From a virus: a stretch of DNA of 64,000 bases. Below the pieces are notes generated by a model. That model had not been told where the DNA came from. It worked only from the letters and a program-made list of their open reading frames with translations, and did not search any database. Below are positions 4,217 to 51,227 of this stretch, one piece after another (within the stretch, counting starts at the first letter, position 1; every line of letters starts with the position of its first letter). Location: IMG/VR virus record IMGVR_UViG_3300035698_018616. One strand, given 5' to 3'. The translations under genes were made by a program, and so were the position numbers.

Positions 4217-4972
4217 TTATATTGTAACATGTAACCAACTTTTACCATTTTTTATCCTTCTAATAGTTGAAGTTGATACATTAAATATAATTGATATATT
4301 TTTGGTGGTTTCATTATTTTTTACTAACTCTTTAATTTTTCTCACTTTTTCATTATTTAATTTAGAATTAGGATGATTTTCTCCTGTAAGTTTTTCAGAA
4401 ATTTTATTTAAAGTTTCTTTAGTATGTTTTTTACCATAAAAAGGATTCTTCTTACCAATTCTTTGTTCTCTCAATTTTTGTTTAGTTTCTTCTGAAAGTT
4501 TTGTACCAATTTTCACTTCAGACCATTTCTTTAATTGATTTTCTGTAAGCTTTCTCCCTTTATTAGCTTTACTTACTATATCTTTTACTCTTTGACTTCT
4601 TTTTCTACCATACATACCATTATTTTTACCTTTAGATTTCAATCCTATTTTTCTTTTAGATTCTTCGGAATGTTTAAATCCATGATTTCCTTCTCCACCC
4701 CAAGTTAAATTATATCCATTAGGTTTGAAAGAATTATACTGTTTGATATAATGGTATTCCATCTCATCCATTTCTTCTTTAGATGAACATTCCTCTATAA
4801 TTTCCCATTTAAAATTATCAAAACCATATTTACGAATAGCTCTATAAAAATAAAAATCTGTACCTGCATTTGCTCGTTGTAAATGTGATTTTTTTCTTTC
4901 AGATAAAGGTTTGATAGTTTGACCTATATAACATTTACCATTAATCTCATTTATAGTTTTATAGATAATCAT
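4217..4972 (-). CDS. GIY-YIG homing endonuclease (Seg-like, NUMOD3 repeats)
   Basis: IIYKTINEINGKCYIGQT; GYNLTWGGEG; HSEESKRKI / HTKETLNKIS repeats; C-terminal HTH. Confidence 0.92.
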   Translation of the reverse strand: MIIYKTINEINGKCYIGQTIKPLSERKKSHLQRANAGTDFYFYRAIRKYGFDNFKWEIIEECSSKEEMDEMEYHYIKQYNSFKPNGYNLTWGGEGNHGFKHSEESKRKIGLKSKGKNNGMYGRKRSQRVKDIVSKANKGRKLTENQLKKWSEVKIGTKLSEETKQKLREQRIGKKNPFYGKKHTKETLNKISEKLTGENHPNSKLNNEKVRKIKELVKNNETTKNISIIFNVSTSTIRRIKNGKSWLHVTI

Positions 4973-4973
4973 T

Positions 4974-5234
4974 TCAATCCGATCCAGTTGGTTTGACATT
5001 TTGACCATTAGCTCTTGCTTGTTTATAAGCATCCCAATAGTGACTGCTATTACCCTTCCAGTCGCACATATCTGTGCGATTATTATACTTCAATTCAAAA
5101 CGTGACTTTGATATCAATCTATCCATTGCTTTCTTACATTTTGGACAGGTATGCTTCTCATCCATTTCTTTTCCAAACTCTAACTTTTCTTCATAACAAC
5201 CACAATCATTACATAAATACTCGAAAATAGGCAT
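4974..5234 (-). CDS. FmdB-family zinc-ribbon protein
   Basis: MPIFEYLCNDCG...CPKCKK...LISKS. Confidence 0.85.
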   Translation of the reverse strand: MPIFEYLCNDCGCYEEKLEFGKEMDEKHTCPKCKKAMDRLISKSRFELKYNNRTDMCDWKGNSSHYWDAYKQARANGQNVKPTGSD

Positions 5235-5773: not shown

Positions 5774-6062
5774 TTCTTTTCATCCTCTCATCAATTCTTA
5801 TAAGGATATCATTCATTACATCTTGTTTCAATTTTATTTTCTCCACATCTGTTTGAACTTTCCCTATTTCTTTTTGAACTTGCTGGTTTCTATCATCTCT
5901 TTCTTCCTGTATATCTTGTTTGTTTTCAATAACATCAGCAGCTAAACTTGTAACACTATAAGAACTATGTGTAACCCATGTACCCCAACCAAGTATAGAC
6001 ATAAATAATGCAATGACTATAGCCACCATTATCTTTTTTAGTATTCCGTTTTCGGCTTTCAT
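5760..6062 (-). CDS. Single-TM coiled-coil membrane protein (holin-like)
   Basis: N-terminal TM helix followed by a heptad coiled coil. Confidence 0.4.
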   Translation of the reverse strand: MKAENGILKKIMVAIVIALFMSILGWGTWVTHSSYSVTSLAADVIENKQDIQEERDDRNQQVQKEIGKVQTDVEKIKLKQDVMNDILIRIDERMKRNENK

Positions 6063-6065
6063 TTC

Positions 6066-6515
6066 TCATAACCTCTCAAATGTGTAATATATCATGAAGG
6101 TGTTTTCAATATATTTATCGGTAAGTCTGTAATGTAATTCCTTTTCAATCCTATCTGAAAATTTATCATATAATTTCTCTCTTTTAATGAAACCACAGTA
6201 TTGCCATTCTTTTGGCTTCACTTTACTGATAAATTGTTTTAATGCACTTAGTGCTCCTGCAAAGGCTTTTAATGGATGTCCTGTATGTGTGTCACCGGTA
6301 ACAATAGTACCATCCATATCAGCACCAAATGTGAAATGATATATACCACTTATCTTTGCTACCTTTGCTCTGTATTTCAGACCATCAAATTGCCATACCC
6401 ATTTATTCTTTCCATCAGACATTGCATTTATAGATTCTAATGATTCATCAAATTCATTACACAATTCTTCAACATATAGATCATATAATTCATCTATATG
6501 TTGTTTAAATTTCAT
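6066..6515 (-). CDS. Hypothetical protein (capsid-targeting-like N-terminus)
   Basis: ORF abutting neighbours; MKFKQHIDE. Confidence 0.6.
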   Translation of the reverse strand: MKFKQHIDELYDLYVEELCNEFDESLESINAMSDGKNKWVWQFDGLKYRAKVAKISGIYHFTFGADMDGTIVTGDTHTGHPLKAFAGALSALKQFISKVKPKEWQYCGFIKREKLYDKFSDRIEKELHYRLTDKYIENTFMIYYTFERL

Positions 6516-7584: not shown

Positions 7585-8057
7585 TATATAACATATCCCT
7601 CTTCACATATGATAACATTACCATTCCAAAGGTTCAGTATTTCTTCTTTGTCACAGAAGATATCGTCATTTATGGATATAACCTCCAAATTCTTCAACAC
7701 ATCTTCAAAACAATAATTCAATATAAAGTGCAGTTCGTAAGTACTTAAATTTGAAAAATCTAATAGTACCTTGTTATTCTTTCTGAAAAAGGATATAATA
7801 CCAACACCTTTCTGGTTCTGTATATAATACTTTTTAGACGTGTACTTCAGAATATAATTATAGATTCTTATGTTATCTCCTATAATGAACCTATTCGTTT
7901 TAGGGTAAAAGGACAAAACTTTCTTTACCTTTTCCTCTGTTGGATTAAAGAATGCTAATTTGATCAAATGAACCCTTGATATACCTCTCAAATCCTCATC
8001 GTATAGATTATCCTCCGTGATTGTAATAAAATCTGTTCCTATACTGGTAATTCTCAT
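7584..8057 (-). CDS. Hypothetical protein
   Basis: ORF in operon, overlapping stops/starts. Confidence 0.6.
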   Translation of the reverse strand: MRITSIGTDFITITEDNLYDEDLRGISRVHLIKLAFFNPTEEKVKKVLSFYPKTNRFIIGDNIRIYNYILKYTSKKYYIQNQKGVGIISFFRKNNKVLLDFSNLSTYELHFILNYCFEDVLKNLEVISINDDIFCDKEEILNLWNGNVIICEEGYVI

Positions 8058-9097
8058 TTACATTTTCCTCCTAATAATTTCAGTCTCCATGGGGAAATCT
8101 TAATTTTGGTATAAGCTTTAGTGCTTGAGTATGAATTGTCTATAACAAACTTATATATATTATTTATACCAGAACCAACATAAAATTCATTTATATCCTT
8201 ATATTTATCATTAGAAAACAAAAAGAATTTGGTATTAGGAGGGGTATTGTTAGAATCTATAAGTTTAAGTATGGATTTTAGACCAGCTTCATCGTTATCA
8301 AGGCATACTATCAAACCCTTATTTGTTAATTGTGATATTTCATTCAGAAAGTCTTTGGATATTTCACTACCCAAGCAGGATGTTCCTTGACTTCCAATAG
8401 TAGCAGCATCAATCAGACCTTCACATATAATTATATATTTGGAACTATCAAATTCATGCTTGTTATATATAATACTGCCTTTAGCCAATGTGGGGTTCTT
8501 ATATTTGGGTAGAATACTATCAATCATTGCTCTTGCTTGGAAGTAAACAATATGATTATCTTTATCGTATATGGGTATTATAAATCTCCCTTGATAATCA
8601 CCTTTGTAAGCAACATGTACATTAAGATGGGATATTTTCCTATCTCTTATGAATTTTCTTAGAGCTTTCTGATAGATTAGTTTCATATAACCATCAACTC
8701 TTTCATCAACAGATATACAGTCATTCAGTATATAATCGTGATATTCATATTCATATTCTATTTCCTTAATTATTTTTTCTTTCTTGCGATTGGAAAGTTT
8801 TTGGATTAGATAGTCTGGGTCGTATGATTGGAGATCTTTAAGGGATTGGGCTATGGATATTCCTTTAAGAGTGGAATAAAGAGTAAGAAATGAACCAGAT
8901 TCATTACAGTTAAAACAATGCCATAAAATTTGCCCCCCATTAAAATCCATATTAAATCGTTTCTTTGATTTAGATTTCTTTGAATCTCCGCAAAGTGGGC
9001 ATCTCGATAACACATGGGTACCATTTTTAGAGAGTTTCACACCTTCCATATATTGATAACAAAATTCAATCATAACATCTAAAGCTATCATTAACAA
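8054..9097 (-). CDS. DNA primase (T4 gp61-like)
   Basis: Zn finger CPLCGDS...WHCFNC; RFIIPI, YFQAR; Toprim ICEGLIDA, CLDNDEAG, YKDINE. Confidence 0.92.
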   Translation of the reverse strand: MLMIALDVMIEFCYQYMEGVKLSKNGTHVLSRCPLCGDSKKSKSKKRFNMDFNGGQILWHCFNCNESGSFLTLYSTLKGISIAQSLKDLQSYDPDYLIQKLSNRKKEKIIKEIEYEYEYHDYILNDCISVDERVDGYMKLIYQKALRKFIRDRKISHLNVHVAYKGDYQGRFIIPIYDKDNHIVYFQARAMIDSILPKYKNPTLAKGSIIYNKHEFDSSKYIIICEGLIDAATIGSQGTSCLGSEISKDFLNEISQLTNKGLIVCLDNDEAGLKSILKLIDSNNTPPNTKFFLFSNDKYKDINEFYVGSGINNIYKFVIDNSYSSTKAYTKIKISPWRLKLLGGKCK

Positions 9098-33885: not shown

Positions 33886-34326
33886 TCATGCTTCCCCTTC
33901 CAAGCATTCCAATAGTCGCTTTAAACACTTAATCAGTTTGGTATTTTTAAGTTTGATCCTATTGTTAAATTCCTCTTCGGTTAATTCTACATCATTAAGA
34001 TACCAATACTTCCAACCATTAATACATTCTATAGCAGGACCATCTGTTCTATGAAATTTACCATTCAGGTACCATTCCTTATCACCATTAATACATTCTA
34101 TAGCAGGACCATCTGTTCTATGGAATTTACCATTCAAGTACCAATACTTATCACCATTTGCGCATTCTATAGCAGGACCATCTGTTCTATGGAGTTTACC
34201 ATTCAGGAACCATTTCTTATCACCATTGGGATATTCTAAAGCAGGCCCATCTACTCTATGAAGTTTACCATTTAGAAACCATTGCTTAGTACTATCATCA
34301 TACACCTTTACCGTATATTCTATCAT
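33886..34326 (-). CDS. LHR.DGPA repeat protein (4 x 23-aa / 69-bp repeats)
   Basis: NGDK.W.LNGK.HRTDGPAIEC units. Confidence 0.85.
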   Translation of the reverse strand: MIEYTVKVYDDSTKQWFLNGKLHRVDGPALEYPNGDKKWFLNGKLHRTDGPAIECANGDKYWYLNGKFHRTDGPAIECINGDKEWYLNGKFHRTDGPAIECINGWKYWYLNDVELTEEEFNNRIKLKNTKLIKCLKRLLECLEGEA

Positions 34327-35063
34327 CCTTCCTCCTCTGAAAACAAGCTGTCCTTATTATCTTTAACAATTTCATCCTTATCATATACTTCCCTCTTATG
34401 ATACAGGCTCTCCAACTCTTTGTACAACACCTTCTTAATGGTTTTTAATTCACCAACCTTCATTTCATCCAACTGATCATCATCGACTAATTTCTTAATA
34501 GTGTTATCCACAACTCTTTTCCTATCATCGGAATCTTTTAGGTCACCATTGTTAAATAGACCTTTAGCAGTAGCTTCTACACTATCGCATAACATTAATA
34601 CAGCCGCTTCTATTGATTGTGGTGGTTTACATTTATAACGATAAACATCATCAAGATTACTTTTTGACTTATTATAAAAGTATTGTAATACTGTGTTACC
34701 ATGATGTTGGGAAATTATTTCAAGCATTTTATGTGGTATATCAGGTATTTGTAATAGAACCAGTATACTATCACCTACATGCCTTGTTATCAAATTGTAA
34801 CTTACCATTGGGTCAATATCATCATGTATATTTGTACCATTCTGATTCTCACCAAAAGCATCAGGATTATTCATTTTACCTATATCATGATACATTGCTG
34901 ATGCTCTCATAATATCCGTATCTAACTCCAGTATATTAGATACAGATTCACAGAAGTTCATAACATTATTACAATGACGAAAAGTACCAGGAGCGGCCTC
35001 TTTAAATTTATCCATCAAAGGGTAGTCAAGGTTTATAATATTTTTAAGTAACGAATCACTCAT
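34323..35063 (-). CDS. Stand-alone HDIG phosphohydrolase (PgpH/7TM-HD-type HD domain)
   Basis: APGTFRHC, YHDIGKM, F.ENQ, ITRHV, ISQHHG.T...YFY, YRY..KPPQSIEAAVLMLCDSVEA. Confidence 0.85.
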   Translation of the reverse strand: MSDSLLKNIINLDYPLMDKFKEAAPGTFRHCNNVMNFCESVSNILELDTDIMRASAMYHDIGKMNNPDAFGENQNGTNIHDDIDPMVSYNLITRHVGDSILVLLQIPDIPHKMLEIISQHHGNTVLQYFYNKSKSNLDDVYRYKCKPPQSIEAAVLMLCDSVEATAKGLFNNGDLKDSDDRKRVVDNTIKKLVDDDQLDEMKVGELKTIKKVLYKELESLYHKREVYDKDEIVKDNKDSLFSEEEG

Positions 35064-38523: not shown

Positions 38524-38599
38524 TGGTGAGCGGGTCCCAGGATTTGAACCAAGACCTCCCAACGGGTAGTCGGGTATGCTACTGTTACACCAAACCCGC
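38524..38599 (-). tRNA. tRNA-Gly(ACC)-like
   Basis: GCGGGTT/GACCCGC-U73 Gly-type acceptor; CCCGA-CTACCCG-TTGGG. Confidence 0.65.
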
Positions 38600-39655: not shown

Positions 39656-40612
39656 TTACAAATACCCACCTAACATTTCTACTACAATCTTACTTACATT
39701 GTATACATACTGCAATTCCTTCTTCTTTAAACCTTGAAGTTCATCAATGTAATCCTTGTCAAACTCTTCCTTAGCGTCATTCAGAACATACTTGATATAT
39801 TTCCCTATTTGCTTTGGATTTGAAATCTCACCATGTTTAGAAAATACACTCAGAAGCCTGTTCTTTGTTATGTAATCCTTGAAACCTTCTTGTAGTTCAA
39901 CCAATTTATCATCTACAGGTTTTCTTTCCCTCTTAGGCTTGACTTCCCCAAACTTTTCTCCCTTCTTCTTTAGATAGAACACGTTACCTATCTTGGTGGT
40001 CGGGGTATCCTCACCATAAGTTATACTATAAATCTTGTTATATGGTTTGATTACTACACCTTCAATGTTATCCCCACCTTCGGGGTACACAAGGCTTTTG
40101 ACATCCTCAACATTAAAATCTAAGGCTTCCTGGAGACCCTTAACTATACCAAAAGAGGGGATCAGAAAATCTTCTATATTGAGTAATGAGAACATATCCT
40201 CCATTTCCCAAGGTGTCAGTAACACATCATTGATAATCATGTCATAAGCCAATAGAAACTTACCATCACCATAATTGATTCTCTTTTGAATACCTGTACC
40301 AAACACCTCACAGTAAACATTAAGAGTGGATTCTGTTTCTTTAGCATATTTCTTTAGCACATCTACAACATCCATATACTTAGTTTCTACAATGAATTGA
40401 ATATTATAGAAATTTTCCTTTGGCCCTACTATACCACTTCTCTTAACTATACTCCATGTACCATCAGATTCAAAGACAAGAGAAATATTGGCACCATCAA
40501 TCTTTACCTGTATGATGTAGTCCTCTGTCTCTAATTCAGGAAACCTTTCCAGCCAATAATCAATTTCTTTTTGCCTATATGAATTATCGATGCTGAAATA
40601 TTTTCTGAACAT
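39656..40612 (-). CDS. RNA ligase, Rnl2 family
   Basis: Motifs VKIDGANIS, EVFG, FLLAYDM, EGVVIKP, YLKKK; C-terminal helical domain. Confidence 0.85.
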   Translation of the reverse strand: MFRKYFSIDNSYRQKEIDYWLERFPELETEDYIIQVKIDGANISLVFESDGTWSIVKRSGIVGPKENFYNIQFIVETKYMDVVDVLKKYAKETESTLNVYCEVFGTGIQKRINYGDGKFLLAYDMIINDVLLTPWEMEDMFSLLNIEDFLIPSFGIVKGLQEALDFNVEDVKSLVYPEGGDNIEGVVIKPYNKIYSITYGEDTPTTKIGNVFYLKKKGEKFGEVKPKRERKPVDDKLVELQEGFKDYITKNRLLSVFSKHGEISNPKQIGKYIKYVLNDAKEEFDKDYIDELQGLKKKELQYVYNVSKIVVEMLGGYL

Positions 40613-40902
40613 TATACACAACCTCCACAACATCCATATGGTATTTCAGAATTAACTTTATTTAAAACACCCTCTTTATATTCTTCTGGAAAACCATCTG
40701 GCCATTCATCAATAGTCCATGGTCCTGATTCAATATGCTCACTCCAATCATCATCAAAATAAACGGAACCACCTGAACTTAAACAATATTCACCAAAATC
40801 CCATTCTTTTCCATCAACAAATACTTGTAAAGTACCTCTACATAAGTTAGGATATTCGCCATTATATTTTATATTTATTTTTGACATTTTATCCCCTTTG
40901 TG

Positions 40903-43281: not shown

Positions 43282-43356
43282 TGGAGCAGGTGGAGGGGAT
43301 TGAACCCTCGTATTCTGGGTGGAAGCCAAAAATTTTACCAATTAAATTACACCTGC
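43282..43356 (-). tRNA. tRNA-Gly(TCC)
   Basis: Loop CTTCCAC, GCAGGTG acceptor, U73-CCA. Confidence 0.82.
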
Positions 43357-43926
43357 ACTTCTTTTTCTCCAATTTCTTCTATCTTCTCTTATACAATTTT
43401 CATTTCTACTACCATAATTATCAGTTAGTGAATGACAATTAGGACACAGAAGTTCTAAATTTTCCTCTTTATTATTTTTACAATTACCATCAATATGATG
43501 AACTGTCAACGGTATATTACCAGTATGTATGTTTGTTCTTGACCAACCACATTCTTGGCATTCGTTATCATATATTTCAAACATATACCTTCTTATATGG
43601 CGAGATAAATATTCGTTATCATTCGAACCCTTTTCTAATCCTTGTTTCCACCTTTCAATGTATTGTTTATATGTATATTCCCATTGACATTGGTGATTAC
43701 AATACTTTTTTCTGTAATTATCTAACAACTTCTTTCCACAATTCAAACAATGTGTGTAAACTTCTCTCGGTATGTAAGGTTTACCACCACTTAATGTTTC
43801 ACTTACTTTCTTTTTTGTTTCATATGACCTTGCTCCTCTACTGTTAGCACAAGACCTACAACAAAATCTACCACTTCCGAAACTTCCATCATGTTCTTTA
43901 CCGCATTTCTCATTCTCACATTTCAT
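43342..43926 (-). CDS. HNH homing endonuclease
   Basis: RFCCRSCAN; CQECGW...LTVHHIDGN...NLELLCPNCHS. Confidence 0.9.
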   Translation of the reverse strand: MKCENEKCGKEHDGSFGSGRFCCRSCANSRGARSYETKKKVSETLSGGKPYIPREVYTHCLNCGKKLLDNYRKKYCNHQCQWEYTYKQYIERWKQGLEKGSNDNEYLSRHIRRYMFEIYDNECQECGWSRTNIHTGNIPLTVHHIDGNCKNNKEENLELLCPNCHSLTDNYGSRNENCIREDRRNWRKRSAGVI

Positions 43927-43954
43927 AATTTGAACCTCCAATATTTTATACTCT

Positions 43955-45288: not shown

Positions 45289-46407
45289 TTACTTACTTAC
45301 CCCTTTTATATTTATTATTGGTTTTATATAGTCCACAACTTCAATAACGATACCTTCTTGTCTACTCATAACATCACTGATATCTTTATAAGCAAACCGT
45401 GATTCATCTAAGGTACTTTTATCAGCTTTACAGACTATACCTTCCATATCCTTGATAAAATCATCTAAGTCTATGGTTTCCTTTGCTTTTCTACGACTAA
45501 ATCTCCTTCCTGCTCCATGAGAAGCGGAAGATAAATATTCATCATTACCTAAACCCTTTGTAACATATACACCATCTTTCATGTTACCAGGTATCACACC
45601 TAATTGTCCTTTGTCTGCTGGTGTTGCACCCTTACGATGTAAAACTGTACCATCAGATTGAACAATAGCATGGTTATGATTTTCGTTTATCATATCACGA
45701 ATATACATATGATGTAAACCTAAAATCTCTAACACCTTTTCCATCATTATCTTTCGATTATATAATGCATATTCTTGGGCAAACTTCATATCTTGTAAGT
45801 AGGCTTTACCATACTCACCATCTAAGTGCAAGAAACCATTAGGCAAATCTTTATCTACATTCTTGGACAACTTCATCCAATAAGACGCTATGCTATGTCC
45901 TATGTTACGAGAACCCGAATGTATGGTTATGGATAAAGAACCTCTACTATATGCTTCACCTATCTCTATAAAGTGATTACCACTACCTAAAGTGCCAATT
46001 TGTACCCACAATCTTTTTGCAACCTTTTTATCTAATTTTTTATCACCACTTGCAGATTTGAAAGATTTATAGTCCAATCCTTTCTCTCTGGAATTAAATC
46101 CTACAGGTATCTTTTCATATATATCATCAAATATGTAGTTCTCTTTACCATATATATAAGATACATGTTCACCGGACATTATACAACACATGCCGCATCC
46201 GATGTCATAGCCAACGTAAGAAGGAGAGATAACACCATCCAATAAAGCAACCCCACCTATTGGTAAAGAATACCCTACATGACAATCAGGCATTACAGCC
46301 AACACTTTCAAGAAATCCAAATTCAAAGCATAGTATATTTGTTGCTGAGCTTCTTGTTCTAATTCCTCTAAGGGTATCAAAGTTCTTAATTTATCTAAGT
46401 TAGCCAT
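45289..46407 (-). CDS. rtcB: RtcB RNA ligase
   Basis: MPDCH.G..LPIG, VGYDIGCG, GTLGSGNHFIE, HSGSR, NHNH, HRKGAT, PGNM, SHGAGR, DESR.AYKDI. Confidence 0.97.
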   Translation of the reverse strand: MANLDKLRTLIPLEELEQEAQQQIYYALNLDFLKVLAVMPDCHVGYSLPIGGVALLDGVISPSYVGYDIGCGMCCIMSGEHVSYIYGKENYIFDDIYEKIPVGFNSREKGLDYKSFKSASGDKKLDKKVAKRLWVQIGTLGSGNHFIEIGEAYSRGSLSITIHSGSRNIGHSIASYWMKLSKNVDKDLPNGFLHLDGEYGKAYLQDMKFAQEYALYNRKIMMEKVLEILGLHHMYIRDMINENHNHAIVQSDGTVLHRKGATPADKGQLGVIPGNMKDGVYVTKGLGNDEYLSSASHGAGRRFSRRKAKETIDLDDFIKDMEGIVCKADKSTLDESRFAYKDISDVMSRQEGIVIEVVDYIKPIINIKGVSK

Positions 46408-47129: not shown

Positions 47130-47207
47130 TGGCGGGTGCCAGGAGACTTGAACTCCTATCTTATAGTTTAACAGACTATTGCTCTATCCTATTTGAGCTA
47201 AGCACCC
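47130..47207 (-). tRNA. tRNA-Asn(GTT)
   Basis: ATAGT-CTGTTAA-ACTAT, GCCA. Confidence 0.9.
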
Positions 47208-48127
47208 AAATTGTAATTACTTTCATGTTTTATTATATCATAAAACTCTCTTATTTGTCTATATAACTTTTTTCTTCCATTTTTTGTATACGGTACAAAC
47301 CATTGAATTCTATATACTGTATAACCATTTTTAGTTAAATAGGCATCTTTTTTTATATCACTTTCCATCCTTCTTTTTTGTCTATGTTGTTTACCATCAA
47401 CCTCTAATACTATTCTATCATTTATTACAAAATCAGCAAAATATTTACCTATTTTCTTTTCCCTTATATAATCTATGTCTTCTTCTTTAAAAACATCCAT
47501 AAAATATTGTTCAGGATATGATGGTTTTAATTTTGTTCTTGTAGCCCAACCTTTAAAAGAACTTCTCTTTGCTATTTCTTTTCCTATTCTTATAGCTTGT
47601 TTTATATATTCCGGATCTTTAGGAAGACATTTTTTACACAAACCCCATTTTGTTTTTCTTCTTAATACTTTACCACAATTCTTACATATATTCTTTGCAT
47701 GTTTAGGAAAACATTCCTTACAAAATACTCTTTTAGGGTCCGTTTGTAATTTAACTGTTACTAATTCACTACAATCACAACATTTTACATCCTTAAACCC
47801 ATCCACTTTTCTTTTATCAGCAAAATATATATTGGAACATTTATAGGAACATGTTGTATTGTTATCCTTCCCACTAGTTTCAAATTCTTTGTTACATTGC
47901 GGACACACTTTCTTTATAATTTTTTCATATTTTCTATTTCTCCATTGTTTATCAAAATGTGTAGTATCAATATCATATGTTTCTATATATTCTTTTAGTA
48001 TAAGAGTAGTATCACCTTTAGTATATCCAAATAAATTTATTGATATATCATTTCTATTCTTATTATTACTGATACTTTCCTTGATTCTTTCATGTCCGAA
48101 TTTTCGTATAAAGTTTTCTAATTTCAT
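47198..48127 (-). CDS. Homing-type endonuclease, DUF559/Vsr-like domain with Zn fingers
   Basis: CPQC..TTCSYKC, CKNCG..LCKKC; SYPEQYF, YFADF, LEVDG.QH, D.KKDAYL...GYTVYRI. Confidence 0.85.
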   Translation of the reverse strand: MKLENFIRKFGHERIKESISNNKNRNDISINLFGYTKGDTTLILKEYIETYDIDTTHFDKQWRNRKYEKIIKKVCPQCNKEFETSGKDNNTTCSYKCSNIYFADKRKVDGFKDVKCCDCSELVTVKLQTDPKRVFCKECFPKHAKNICKNCGKVLRRKTKWGLCKKCLPKDPEYIKQAIRIGKEIAKRSSFKGWATRTKLKPSYPEQYFMDVFKEEDIDYIREKKIGKYFADFVINDRIVLEVDGKQHRQKRRMESDIKKDAYLTKNGYTVYRIQWFVPYTKNGRKKLYRQIREFYDIIKHESNYNLGA

Positions 48128-48143
48128 TTTTACCTCCTTCATA

Positions 48144-48151
48144 TATTTATA
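48144..48151 (-). promoter_or_regulatory. T4-type late promoter TATAAATA
   Basis: Exact consensus just upstream of the endonuclease RBS. Confidence 0.65.
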
Positions 48152-48199
48152 CAAAAGAGGTCATTTTTATAGGTTTTGAACCCAAAGAAATAAACTTTT

Positions 48200-48519: not shown

Positions 48520-48712
48520 ATATTTATTCTCTTATTTCTTTCAATTCACATACTATATTCTTTATAACGTGACATTTTTTCTTAGAACAGTATAGTACAT
48601 CAAATGTTCTACAACTACCATAACCATCTAATGCTTCTACCTTTGCTGTTTCAGCGTACTTACATATTCTATCACAAAACTTCATTCTTGTAAACCCCCT
48701 CGTAATTGTTAA

Positions 48713-48790
48713 TGGAACGCCTGGAGGGACTCGAACCCCCGACTTTTTGATTCGTAGTCAAAATCTCTAATTCCACTGAGTTACAGGCGC
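48713..48790 (-). tRNA. tRNA-Arg(ACG)
   Basis: TTTGA-CTACGAA-TCAAA, CCA. Confidence 0.9.
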
Positions 48791-48796
48791 TTAGTT

Positions 48797-48873
48797 TGGT
48801 GGAGGATACTGGAATCGAACCAGCAACTACCCGGTACTTCACACCGGAGCTCTACCGTTGGAGCTAATCCTCC
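48797..48873 (-). tRNA. tRNA-Phe(GAA)
   Basis: CCGGT-GTGAAGT-ACCGG, ACCA. Confidence 0.82.
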
Positions 48874-48878
48874 TCTTT

Positions 48879-48955
48879 TGGCACGTCTGGAGAGATTTGA
48901 ACTCCCATCATCTAGTTTTGGAGACTAGTGCCTTAGCCAGTTAGACCACAGACGC
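48879..48955 (-). tRNA. tRNA-Trp(CCA), first gene of the array
   Basis: CTAGT-CTCCAAA-ACTAG, GCCA. Confidence 0.9.
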
Positions 48956-48960
48956 ACAAT

Positions 48961-48996
48961 AAAAAAGGGTTTCTACTTTGTATGGCAGAAACCCTT
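48961..48996 (-). terminator. Intrinsic terminator (attenuator) immediately upstream of the tRNA array
   Basis: AAGGGTTTCTGC-catacaaa-GTAGAAACCCTT + TTTT; 5 nt from the tRNA-Trp 5' end. Confidence 0.85.
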
Positions 48997-49027
48997 GGGT
49001 ATTACTTCTTCTATGGATTTCTACCGC

Positions 49028-49132
49028 TTACATTGGTTCTGTCCTCTTATCATTAATATTAAGCAAACCTGACCATGCCGGACTCGCAGTAAGATAATGT
49101 TTTCTAAATTGTAAGTGTCGTTTATTCTCCAT
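49028..49132 (-). CDS. Putative attenuator leader peptide MENKRHLQFRKHYLTASPAWSGLLNINDKRTEPM
   Basis: TAAGGA RBS 8 nt before ATG; 34 codons; stop 2 nt before a strand complementary to the terminator 5' arm. Confidence 0.75.
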   Translation of the reverse strand: MENKRHLQFRKHYLTASPAWSGLLNINDKRTEPM

Positions 49133-49150
49133 AATTTTATTCCTTATTTC

Positions 49151-49191
49151 TATTTATACTTTATGGTAACATTTTTCCAGAAAATTGTAAA
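49151..49191 (-). promoter_or_regulatory. Tandem sigma70 (TTTACA-17-TACCAT, extended -10) and late (TATAAATA) promoters of the tRNA operon leader
   Basis: Consensus matches at 49191..49163 and 49158..49151. Confidence 0.8.
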
Positions 49192-50389
49192 CTATTTATC
49201 CTTTTCTTTACAAAATTCTCTCAATTCTTCCCATAACTCCTTGATATCTTTGGGTTTAAAGCTTAGATCACCTTTCAAATCCCTCATTATGAAGAACCTT
49301 TCCATTTCAGGCATCAGCTCCCAATTCCTTTTAGCCCAGTCAACAAATTCTATTACTGGAAAGGTATCATGGGACTTGAAACAGTACTTAAACGACTGAT
49401 ATATCATCCAATCAGGCATTTCCAATTTCTTTTTCCTATCTTTATAAGCATACATCATTGTTAATCCTCCTATTGTTCTTCAGTAGGAAAATAATACACA
49501 CCTTCGGTTAGTTCAGCATGGCTACCATTAGCTATAACAGTAACATAAGGGTGATAATTATCATTCAACCATTTAATTAGTGGTCGAGTGATCTTTTCAA
49601 ATTCTTCTTTTTGCGTTTCAGTAATTGTTATATTTTTACCCATTACCATTCATCTCCATTTGCAGTTATATCTTCATCTACCATATCTTCTTCCACATTA
49701 TTCATCTTATCAAACACCTTTTCCAATTTCCATAAAGCTTCCCTTGACATCCAACCTCCAGGAGCCAGCTTATTGAACACTTTCTTCAAAAACCCTAAAG
49801 TTACAGGGGACAACGTTTCATTCTTTCCTTTTATTCTCTTATCAAGGTTATTGAATTTCATATCAGTTGCAAAGGTTATTACTTCGGAGGTGTCAATGTA
49901 TCTCCTAACTTTTGCTCTCTTACCACTTACACAGATGCTTGATATGCTCTTACCACTAAAGGTCATGCTATGGAAGCCCTTATCCTTATCTTCCAAAATA
50001 GTAGTAAATATCAGCTTGTTACCATCATCAAACTCTATGTAAGGAACATTCTTAGGTGACGAGTATTTTAATCGCATTCACTACATCTCCTCTACAGGCG
50101 CAAAACCCTCTAAATATAAACCCATATCATCATAAGCCCAATGGATTTCTTTATTTATAAAACCAGCTTGTTTTTTGACTGTATGACCATCACCTATAGA
50201 ATCACCGAAGCAACGATCCAATGCTCTTACAGTAGGTCCATTATCACAAGGAACGCTGTCGGTCTCTCCTGTCTTACTATCCTCTATAATAAGGGTACCC
50301 ATACCAGAATTCCAACTACCCTTAAATGCTTTTATAATGCCTCTTTTGACTGTCATGTTGTATTTCCTTTCGATTGTACCCCTACACAC
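49192..50389 (-). other. Hypothetical ORFs (49192-49458, 49643-50077, 50081-50389)
   Basis: Co-oriented ORFs with RBSs. Confidence 0.55.
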
Positions 50390-50408: not shown

Positions 50409-51227
50409 TTACTCACCATTCACGACTAATGCTCTTTCATCATACCCATAAAGGTCACCAGCCATGCGATTTATTGTATTGAACCTACTAGAGAACACAT
50501 TAGAACCGTTGCGTGCTTTGGTTTCATGTGTAGCCAAAAATGTGAGCACGTTATATGCACCATATTTGTCCTCATTCAACTTCTGGCTGTTCATAGTAGG
50601 CTCATAGGCATCCTTAACAGCCTCACCCACTTTCTTACCAAGGTATTCTCTTCCATCAACAAAGGCATCAAAGTCAGCCTGGTTGAATCCAATCTCTGCC
50701 CAGCCAGACCAGGTCAGTACATTCTCCTGGAAAGCATCCAATTTGGAATCCACTGACAATCTTAACCTTTCGGGGTTGTCAACATAATGAGCATAGGATT
50801 CACGAAAGAAGGACTTACGACCCAACACCTGACCATTCTCACAAATGCTACGATATCCCATCAGTTCATATCCAAATGCAGTACGAGCATCATAACCGTT
50901 GAAAATCTCTAATAGCAACCCAACACTATCATCTGGAAGAACCTCAAAATTGAAGCTATCCTCTCCGAATATAATTCTCCTACGCCATCTTCGAGTTGTT
51001 GCATCTAAATGGTCATGAACCTCTTTCACCTCAAGTCCATCAAGGGCTTCATCAAACAGGGAATTGATATTACTGTTAGGAAGCAACTCATAATTCTCTG
51101 AAACCAGTCCTAAGATATCATCGGTTTCATCATTGATAAGTGCTACCTTGGGTATACTCAGTCCACTTTCGGTCTTGATAGTCTCTTTACGGACACTAAA
51201 AAACGGATTTCTTTCCTCTTTATACAT
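50409..51227 (-). CDS. DUF932/DUF945-family protein
   Basis: LGLVSENYELLPN, IFNGYDARTAF..ELMGYRSICENG, YGAYNVLT..ATH. Confidence 0.75.
   Translation of the reverse strand: MYKEERNPFFSVRKETIKTESGLSIPKVALINDETDDILGLVSENYELLPNSNINSLFDEALDGLEVKEVHDHLDATTRRWRRRIIFGEDSFNFEVLPDDSVGLLLEIFNGYDARTAFGYELMGYRSICENGQVLGRKSFFRESYAHYVDNPERLRLSVDSKLDAFQENVLTWSGWAEIGFNQADFDAFVDGREYLGKKVGEAVKDAYEPTMNSQKLNEDKYGAYNVLTFLATHETKARNGSNVFSSRFNTINRMAGDLYGYDERALVVNGE

Follow-up and report, generated by a model that had tools for sequence, protein, structure and literature searches.

A candidate ribosome-mediated attenuator with a single conserved Trp codon ahead of tRNA-Trp in a group of metagenomic phages

How a phage sets the timing and dose of its own transfer RNAs (tRNAs) is largely unknown, and the viral DNA of 64,000 nucleotides (nt) analysed here (IMG/VR record IMGVR_UViG_3300035698_018616, hereafter the window) raises this question at the segment 48956-49191, which lies on the minus strand directly ahead of a tRNA array. 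An earlier note on this DNA had read the segment as an attenuator in which a ribosome on a short leader open reading frame (ORF) samples the supply of nearly all tRNAs and thereby gates the whole array. Judged from sequence and its comparison between relatives, the element is very probably a translation-coupled switch between a terminator and an antiterminator. That it is a ribosome-mediated attenuator of the trp-operon style, which responds to how UGG is decoded and thereby regulates the phage's own tRNA-Trp by feedback, is the reading we favour, with somewhat better than even confidence. The observed basis consists of the sequence anatomy, the conservation of the element, the covariation of the antiterminator, a linkage with tRNA-Trp and a Trp codon that does not vary.

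All features of the element are on the minus strand, and the promoter, ribosome-binding site, ORF, antiterminator, terminator and tRNA-Trp listed in the earlier note were each found again in the same place. An ORF of 88 residues (49458..49192) ends with its stop codon immediately 5' of a sigma-70-type promoter identified by motif scan (TTTACA-17-TACCAT with a TG extension, 49191..49163). A TATAAATAG box (49158..49150), overlapping the TATAAATA word (49158..49151), lies between this promoter and the Shine-Dalgarno (SD) sequence AAGGA (49145..49141), which stands 8 nt 5' of the ATG at 49132. The leader ORF (49132..49028) has 34 codons followed by TAA (49030..49028), and its lone UGG, encoding Trp20 (49075..49073), is the proposed sensing codon, 50 nt 5' of the antiterminator segment. 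The antiterminator 5' strand GGTAGAAATCC (49025..49015) begins 2 nt past the leader stop and is separated by an 18-nt spacer from the intrinsic terminator (48996..48965; 12-bp stem, 8-nt loop, -16.6 kcal/mol), whose 5' arm shares the portion GGGTTTCTGCC (48994..48984) with the antiterminator. The terminator stem continues into a T6 tract (48966..48961), and 5 nt further on starts tRNA-Trp(CCA) (48955..48879; called by ARAGORN, Rfam tRNA score 59.6 bits), the first gated gene. Since a gap of 5 nt leaves no room for a promoter, expression of tRNA-Trp would require read-through of the terminator.

The duplex between GGTAGAAATCC and GGGTTTCTGCC comprises 11 bp including two G-U pairs (-15.2 kcal/mol), and 1000 dinucleotide shuffles of the stretch between stop codon and terminator never reached its complementarity score. 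The full leader of the window folded into the terminator, and when the 3' arm was withheld, as during transcription, the minimum free energy (MFE) structure contained the antiterminator helix, so that folding yields both of the alternative structures that had been proposed. In constrained folds with the 3' arm withheld, the antiterminator helix was present in the MFE structure of all 14 sequences. The predicted probability of the antiterminator strand being unpaired ranged from 0.18 to 0.93 across lineages, and no conserved anti-antiterminator or pause hairpin (the 1:2 hairpin of attenuators) sequestering this strand was found across the folded lineages. A ribosome whose A site is occupied by a stop codon shields about 12 nt on the 3' side. 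Given this known footprint and the position of the strand, a ribosome at the leader stop would mask most of the antiterminator strand.

Relatives were reached through the DUF932 protein encoded 1.2 kilobases (kb) upstream of the element (50409..51227), with which about 100 loci were retrieved. A blind script was applied to both strands of 99 loci, asking for a terminator-like hairpin, a complement worth at least 7.5 pair-equivalents no more than 70 nt upstream, and an ORF of 15-90 codons ending beside the complement. It returned 207 terminator-like hairpins, 40 of them with a complementary segment and 24 also with the ORF, and all 24 were the present element; the elements of loci L090, L101 and L086 were added by eye to these cases. 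The layout is thus shared by related phage contigs from metagenomes that fall into about 12 diverged lineages, with neighbouring DUF932 proteins 44-81% identical.

The first gene past the terminator is tRNA-Trp(CCA) in the window and in L004 (leader 4902-4985, GTTTAGATAGA / TCTATCTAAAC), L079 (7124-7222, CTCAGGAGCCTT / AGGGCTCCTGAG) and L090 (9188-9310, GTGCGAGGCA / TGCCTCGCGC), the paired sequences being the antiterminator strand and the terminator arm. A Trp-like tRNA gene takes this place in L012 (leader 7588-7677, GGCAGAAATCC / GGGTTTCTGCC; tRNA 7748-7825), L038 (6040-6168, CGGGAACC / GGTTCCCG; tRNA 6243-6322), L070 (7947-8033, GGTAAAATC / GATTTTACC; tRNA 8113-8187), L101 (5827-5913, GGCAAAGTC / GGTTTTGCC; tRNA 5992-6065) and L086 (4955-5059, GGAGCAGAAG / CTTCTACTCT with one C-A mismatch; tRNA 5131-5214). 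In L001 (4560-4691, GGTAGAAACC / GGTTTCTACC) tRNA-His comes first and tRNA-Trp second, and in L096 (3997-4107, GGGTAAAACCT / AGGTTTTACCC) the next gene is a tRNA-like RNA. The last lineage, family B (L029, L048, L053, L073 and L087; leaders of 51-55 codons, AGCAGAAAC / GTTTCTGCT), has tRNA-Gly next and tRNA-Trp within a tightly packed array. The element is not present in every relative, since in L098 and L099 tRNA-Gly lies directly 3' of a gene for 157 residues and there is no leader.

The stems diverge between lineages and the antiterminator strand co-varies with them, as seen in the pairs of L070, L079, L004 and L038 given above. When the spacer of each lineage was shuffled separately, 12 of 14 sequences had p values no higher than 0.01. 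An alignment of 12 sequences in one register (A3) contained an antiterminator helix of 10 bp in which 93.5% of cells were paired and both sides had changed in seven of the ten pairs; none of 500 shuffles equalled this, and sliding the partner by 1-3 columns lowered pairing to 53% or less. A MAFFT alignment from the stop codon to the T-run (A2) misplaced the antiterminator segments and was excluded from the counting. The distances were also kept: in all lineages the antiterminator starts 0-7 nt past the stop and ends 10-17 nt past the first base of the stop, with 14-24 nt separating it from the terminator. Stem lengths of the terminators range from 11 to 18 bp and their energies from -13 to -22 kcal/mol; all have a T-run, and the next gene follows after 5-20 nt. 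The trp/his-type geometry to which the earlier note had appealed, with a leader ORF, an antiterminator strand just past its stop and an intrinsic terminator, is therefore retained with compensatory changes in about 12 lineages, and the search among relatives that it had suggested recovered a conserved element whose pairing co-varies. By this comparison of sequences, the layout is not a chance arrangement.

The leader ORF itself is part of what is conserved. Every lineage has an ORF of 27-55 codons whose end lies 0-7 nt 5' of the antiterminator segment; an ORF of this kind would arise by chance with a probability of 0.014-0.037 per lineage. An SD-like AGGA, GGAG or GAGG precedes the start in 15/15 leaders. 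The leader peptides of different lineages cannot be aligned with one another. In family B, the differences fall evenly on the three codon positions and non-synonymous changes predominate, so that the substitution pattern gives no sign of protein-level constraint on the family-B peptide; its few conserved blocks are of the nucleotide level and coincide with predicted stems. One is a hairpin of 9-10 bp (UUCAUAUU ... AAUAUGAAG; L029:3806-3850, also in L048, L053, L073 and L087) that takes in the stop codon of the leader and borders directly on the antiterminator strand, and a second pairing joins the start-codon region with the block coding for LPGT; in these models, both pairings could modulate translation or pausing. 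These patterns suggest that the ORF matters and the peptide sequence does not. Translation of the leader and termination at the hairpin are predictions.

The only residue common to these otherwise unrelated peptides is tryptophan. Exactly one Trp codon was present in all 15 leaders and in 4/4 further family-B peptides from a library of 1.8 billion proteins, and no other rare residue was universal among the leaders. At a background Trp frequency of 1.7%, the probability that nine lineages taken as independent each contain at least one Trp is 8e-4, and it falls to 5e-5 for exactly one Trp apiece. The Trp is 5, 6, 6, 6, 7, 10, 10, 11, 12, 14, 27 and 33-35 residues away from the stop, and in all leaders the UGG lies at least 23 nt 5' of the antiterminator strand, so that a ribosome waiting at UGG would leave this strand free. 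There is one UGG per leader and no tandem run, and in nine lineages tRNA-Trp or a Trp-like tRNA is the first gated gene, while the order of the remaining tRNAs is shuffled between lineages. The Trp-like tRNAs can be aligned with Trp tRNAs, have CUCCAAA as the anticodon loop and CCA encoded at the end, and score below the cut-offs of both ARAGORN and Rfam. Low scores, 29.7 bits in L004 and 34.1 bits in L079, were also obtained for Trp tRNAs that are called. From these sequences, tRNA-Trp appears to be structurally unusual in this phage group.

Under the proposed mechanism, polymerase would start at the 49191 promoter and make a leader of about 190 nt while a ribosome translates the 34-codon ORF. 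A ribosome that reaches the stop would cover 49025..49015, the terminator hairpin would form, and transcription would end at about 48961. If the ribosome were delayed earlier, with the lone UGG as the candidate site when charged tRNA-Trp is scarce, 49025..49015 would remain free and would capture the terminator 5' arm once this is made, permitting read-through into tRNA-Trp, tRNA-Phe and tRNA-Arg. Stalling at UGG as the signal is inferred. Transcription of the phage tRNA-Trp would thereby depend, by negative feedback, on the supply of the UGG decoder. There is about an even chance that a tRNA gene here controls its own transcription by way of the ribosome: the phage would gauge the speed at which one UGG is decoded in a disposable leader ORF, and would transcribe its structurally unusual tRNA-Trp and the neighbouring tRNAs only when the host supply of Trp-tRNA fails, for example after host tRNA decay or nuclease attack.

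Several points weigh against UGG sensing. The structural models contain no conserved 1:2-type hairpin, and an untranslated leader would therefore be expected to default to read-through. A single codon differs from the tandem runs of classical attenuators and, by analogy with these, would give low sensitivity. The lineages share ancestry, so that the statistics on both the Trp residue and tRNA-Trp overstate independence. In family B the UGG is 91-116 nt before the antiterminator, and the first gated tRNAs are Gly-Gly-Val-Pro, with Trp ninth or tenth. In L096 the gene past the terminator has no anticodon arm, the true tRNA-Trp lying at a distance of about 3 kb, and the antiterminator of L086, with its internal mismatch, was judged by eye only.

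The tRNA-like RNA of L096 (L096:4177-4235) has acceptor, D and T arms, a 12-nt remnant replaces its anticodon arm, and it occupies the place that tRNA-Trp has in the other lineages. Some tRNAs called by ARAGORN in L096, L062 and L066 have 'anticodons' of 2 nt.

The extent of the control was judged from the promoters. The extended -10 class TTTACA-N14-TGnTAnnnT has 32 matches in the window against 13 expected, and an equivalent promoter lies 5' of the leader in L001, L012, L070, L079, L090, L096, L101, L086 and family B. Promoter-like sites of this class also occur within the array, at 48694, 46887, 45718, 44286, 41449, 38818 and 35116, and the earlier claim that the whole array is gated does not hold because of them. 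Only tRNA-Trp, tRNA-Phe and tRNA-Arg (48955..48713) are without a promoter of their own: none lies between the terminator and the pair tRNA-Phe(GAA) and tRNA-Arg(ACG) (48873..48713, minus strand), and the next promoter-like site (TTTACA-17-TAGAAT with a TG extension, 48694..48666, minus strand) is the likely end of the obligatorily gated unit. Obligatory gating in the window would accordingly be confined, on this promoter map, to Trp-Phe-Arg. The estimate of about 34 tRNAs in the array was approximate, ARAGORN giving 26 tRNAs and a transfer-messenger RNA (tmRNA) on the minus strand, and some odd tRNA-like genes escape this program.

The TATAAATAG 9-mer is rare in the fetched loci, yet it is found 17-42 nt 5' of the leader start in nearly every lineage (L012:7563, L029:3663, L038:6000, L070:7897, L079:7088, L090:9147, L101:5792 and L086:4929). 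In some lineages it forms the -10 of the TTTACA promoter, and in the window, L012, L086 and family B it lies 3' of a separate -10. Since it resembles the late-promoter word of T4, it may be a second, T4-late-like phage-specific promoter, or else a -10/+1 region. The TATAAATA word, considered as an over-represented promoter word, was dropped, having 17 matches in the window against 15.8 expected. Other promoter-class sites of the window on the minus strand include 53948, 52497 and 51719 besides 48694 and 44286, and three of the 32 share TGTTACACT.

Among the other explanations, the one that survives best is that of the earlier note, a sensor of general translation capacity in which a stall at any codon signals, as under anticodon-nuclease attack or global tRNA depletion, and the Trp codon has no special role. 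The geometry allows for it, since read-through would follow whenever a ribosome is held at least about five codons before the stop, and also without translation. Recounting confirmed the composition described for the leader, with 18 amino acids and, over 34 positions, 29 different codons, and this diversity is high relative to the gene-window null of 21.9 (standard deviation 2.4), with p = 0.04 from nucleotide shuffles. The array also encodes RtcB (45289..46407) and an Rnl2-type RNA ligase (39656..40633) among its tRNA genes on the minus strand, which suggests pressure from tRNA damage. Codon diversity is likewise high in L012, L029 and L053, but L001, L070, L079, L090, L038 and L073 have no excess. 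Because of these six lineages, diversity was rejected as a family trait, and codon sampling is not the conserved property. The sole invariant across unrelated peptides is one Trp codon, tRNA-Trp stays first behind the terminator while other tRNAs shuffle, and the idea that leader amino acids mirror the downstream tRNA block was rejected beyond Trp (69 observed against 64.6 expected). What stands of the pan-tRNA claim is thus the high diversity in the window and the predicted response to almost any early stall; general sensing may be a secondary property, and as the main function we consider it unlikely, at about one chance in five.

A switch in which a factor, be it a phage or host protein, a small RNA or a tRNA, chooses the fold by binding to the leader or to the antiterminator strand, and in which the ORF is secondary, is improbable. 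The nucleotide-level blocks of family B, including the hairpin over the stop codon, the conserved TATAAATAG box and the failure of folding to reveal a 1:2-type structure would all suit such a factor. The ORF, its SD sequence and the 0-7 nt from stop to antiterminator are nevertheless kept in every lineage, although the peptide has turned over completely and the nucleotide sequence to a large extent, and an Rfam scan of 48700..49300 with E up to 10 gave only tRNA above chance, with no Trp_leader, T-box or other leader family.

An arrest peptide of the TnaC/SecM type, with a Trp-containing nascent chain that stalls on a ligand such as free tryptophan and so sets the RNA fold, is quite improbable. 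Trp is a key residue in the TnaC and SecM arrest motifs, and both the invariant Trp of the leaders and the conserved C-terminal stretch of family B would fit. The leader also resembles TnaC of tnaCAB in being a short peptide with one essential Trp, where the position of the ribosome near the stop decides downstream transcription. A TnaC-like mechanism was rejected, since TnaC has a fixed Trp-Asp-Pro spacing and acts by blocking Rho, whereas here Trp lies 5-35 residues from the stop and the terminator is intrinsic. No other residue is common between lineages, and the conserved blocks of family B, being at the nucleotide level, coincide with predicted stems. The weakest explanation, that nothing is regulated and a small gene simply ends in a leaky terminator with an incidental complement upstream, is highly improbable: gene callers annotate the 43-residue ORF of L092 and L093 as a gene and the terminator has the thermodynamic advantage over the antiterminator fold, but the helix co-varies, the per-lineage shuffles are significant, the leader has no protein-level conservation, and a constitutive strong terminator 5 nt before promoterless tRNAs would silence them.

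Attenuation in response to UGG, the preferred reading, places the element beside the leader-peptide attenuators of enterobacterial amino-acid and synthetase operons (trpL, hisL, pheL, leuL, thrL, ilvL and pheST; general treatment in PMC1183508). As in the trpL/hisL/pheL class, a short leader ORF precedes an intrinsic terminator, the antiterminator 5' strand lies just past the leader stop where the ribosome would mask it, the terminator is more stable than the antiterminator, implying a kinetic choice, and the candidate regulatory codon would correspond to the product under control. Unlike in that class, to which it has no relationship in sequence, the genes under control are phage tRNA genes instead of biosynthetic or synthetase genes, a single candidate codon replaces the tandem run, and, with no 1:2 hairpin detected, an untranslated leader should read through and not super-attenuate. 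The T-box riboswitch (RF00230) is similar in that the state of one tRNA sets the choice between terminator and antiterminator, with UGG as the parallel of a Trp specifier. It was rejected because there is no Stem I with specifier loop, no T-box bulge and no Rfam match, and because an ORF with an SD sequence is conserved with its stop locked to the antiterminator. The logic of the T-box, in which uncharged tRNA switches expression on, would moreover give positive feedback on a tRNA gene.

A full-text literature search yielded no description of attenuation of phage or other tRNA genes, leader attenuation being found described only for amino-acid and synthetase genes. If the proposal is true, classical attenuation would extend to non-coding RNA genes and to viruses, a tRNA gene of a virus would be under the control of its own codon, and a single codon could serve as sensor. 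Control would be driven by demand, with tRNA made when decoding is slow, which would tie phage tRNA arrays to the depletion or cleavage of host tRNAs. The set of about 12 lineages, with differing stems, one invariant codon and a fixed geometry, makes the idea testable although the phages are uncultured.

Searches in other collections gave little beyond these loci. In isolated phage genomes the DNA search returned tRNA matches only and the DUF932 protein search returned no match; the neighbouring 88-residue ORF as query recovered no related loci, and exact-pattern scans of IMG/VR gave no contigs beyond those already recovered. An identical DUF932 protein occurs on a contig of 193,676 bp. The sequence of the window is present in 24 sequencing runs, all of DNA from salt-lake metagenomes, and the leader was without variants in the 4 of these 24 runs that were compared. 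As a weak hint to the host, related contigs were binned with Campylobacterota, namely L086 with a Candidatus Sulfurovum kebritense metagenome-assembled genome (MAG) and P0012 with a Sulfurimonas sp. MAG, which faintly suggests hosts of the Sulfurovum/Sulfurimonas type. One contig, L087, was placed in an archaeal (Thermoplasmata) bin.

Besides the two RNA-repair genes, the array contains further protein genes on the minus strand: an HD-domain protein (34323..35063) interleaved with the tRNAs, and HNH nuclease-like (43342-43941) and DUF559 nuclease-like (47198-48154) ORFs between tRNA genes. A phage tmRNA (23440-23809, minus strand) with the tag peptide ADDYNYEYAMAA lies 3' of the tRNA array, and tmRNAs were also observed in relatives (L001:8401-8763 with the tag ADDYSYDLAIAA, and L079:7920-8288). 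In addition, ARAGORN called a tRNA-Gly with the anticodon ACC (38528-38599, minus strand), whose A34 is unusual for bacteria and phages.

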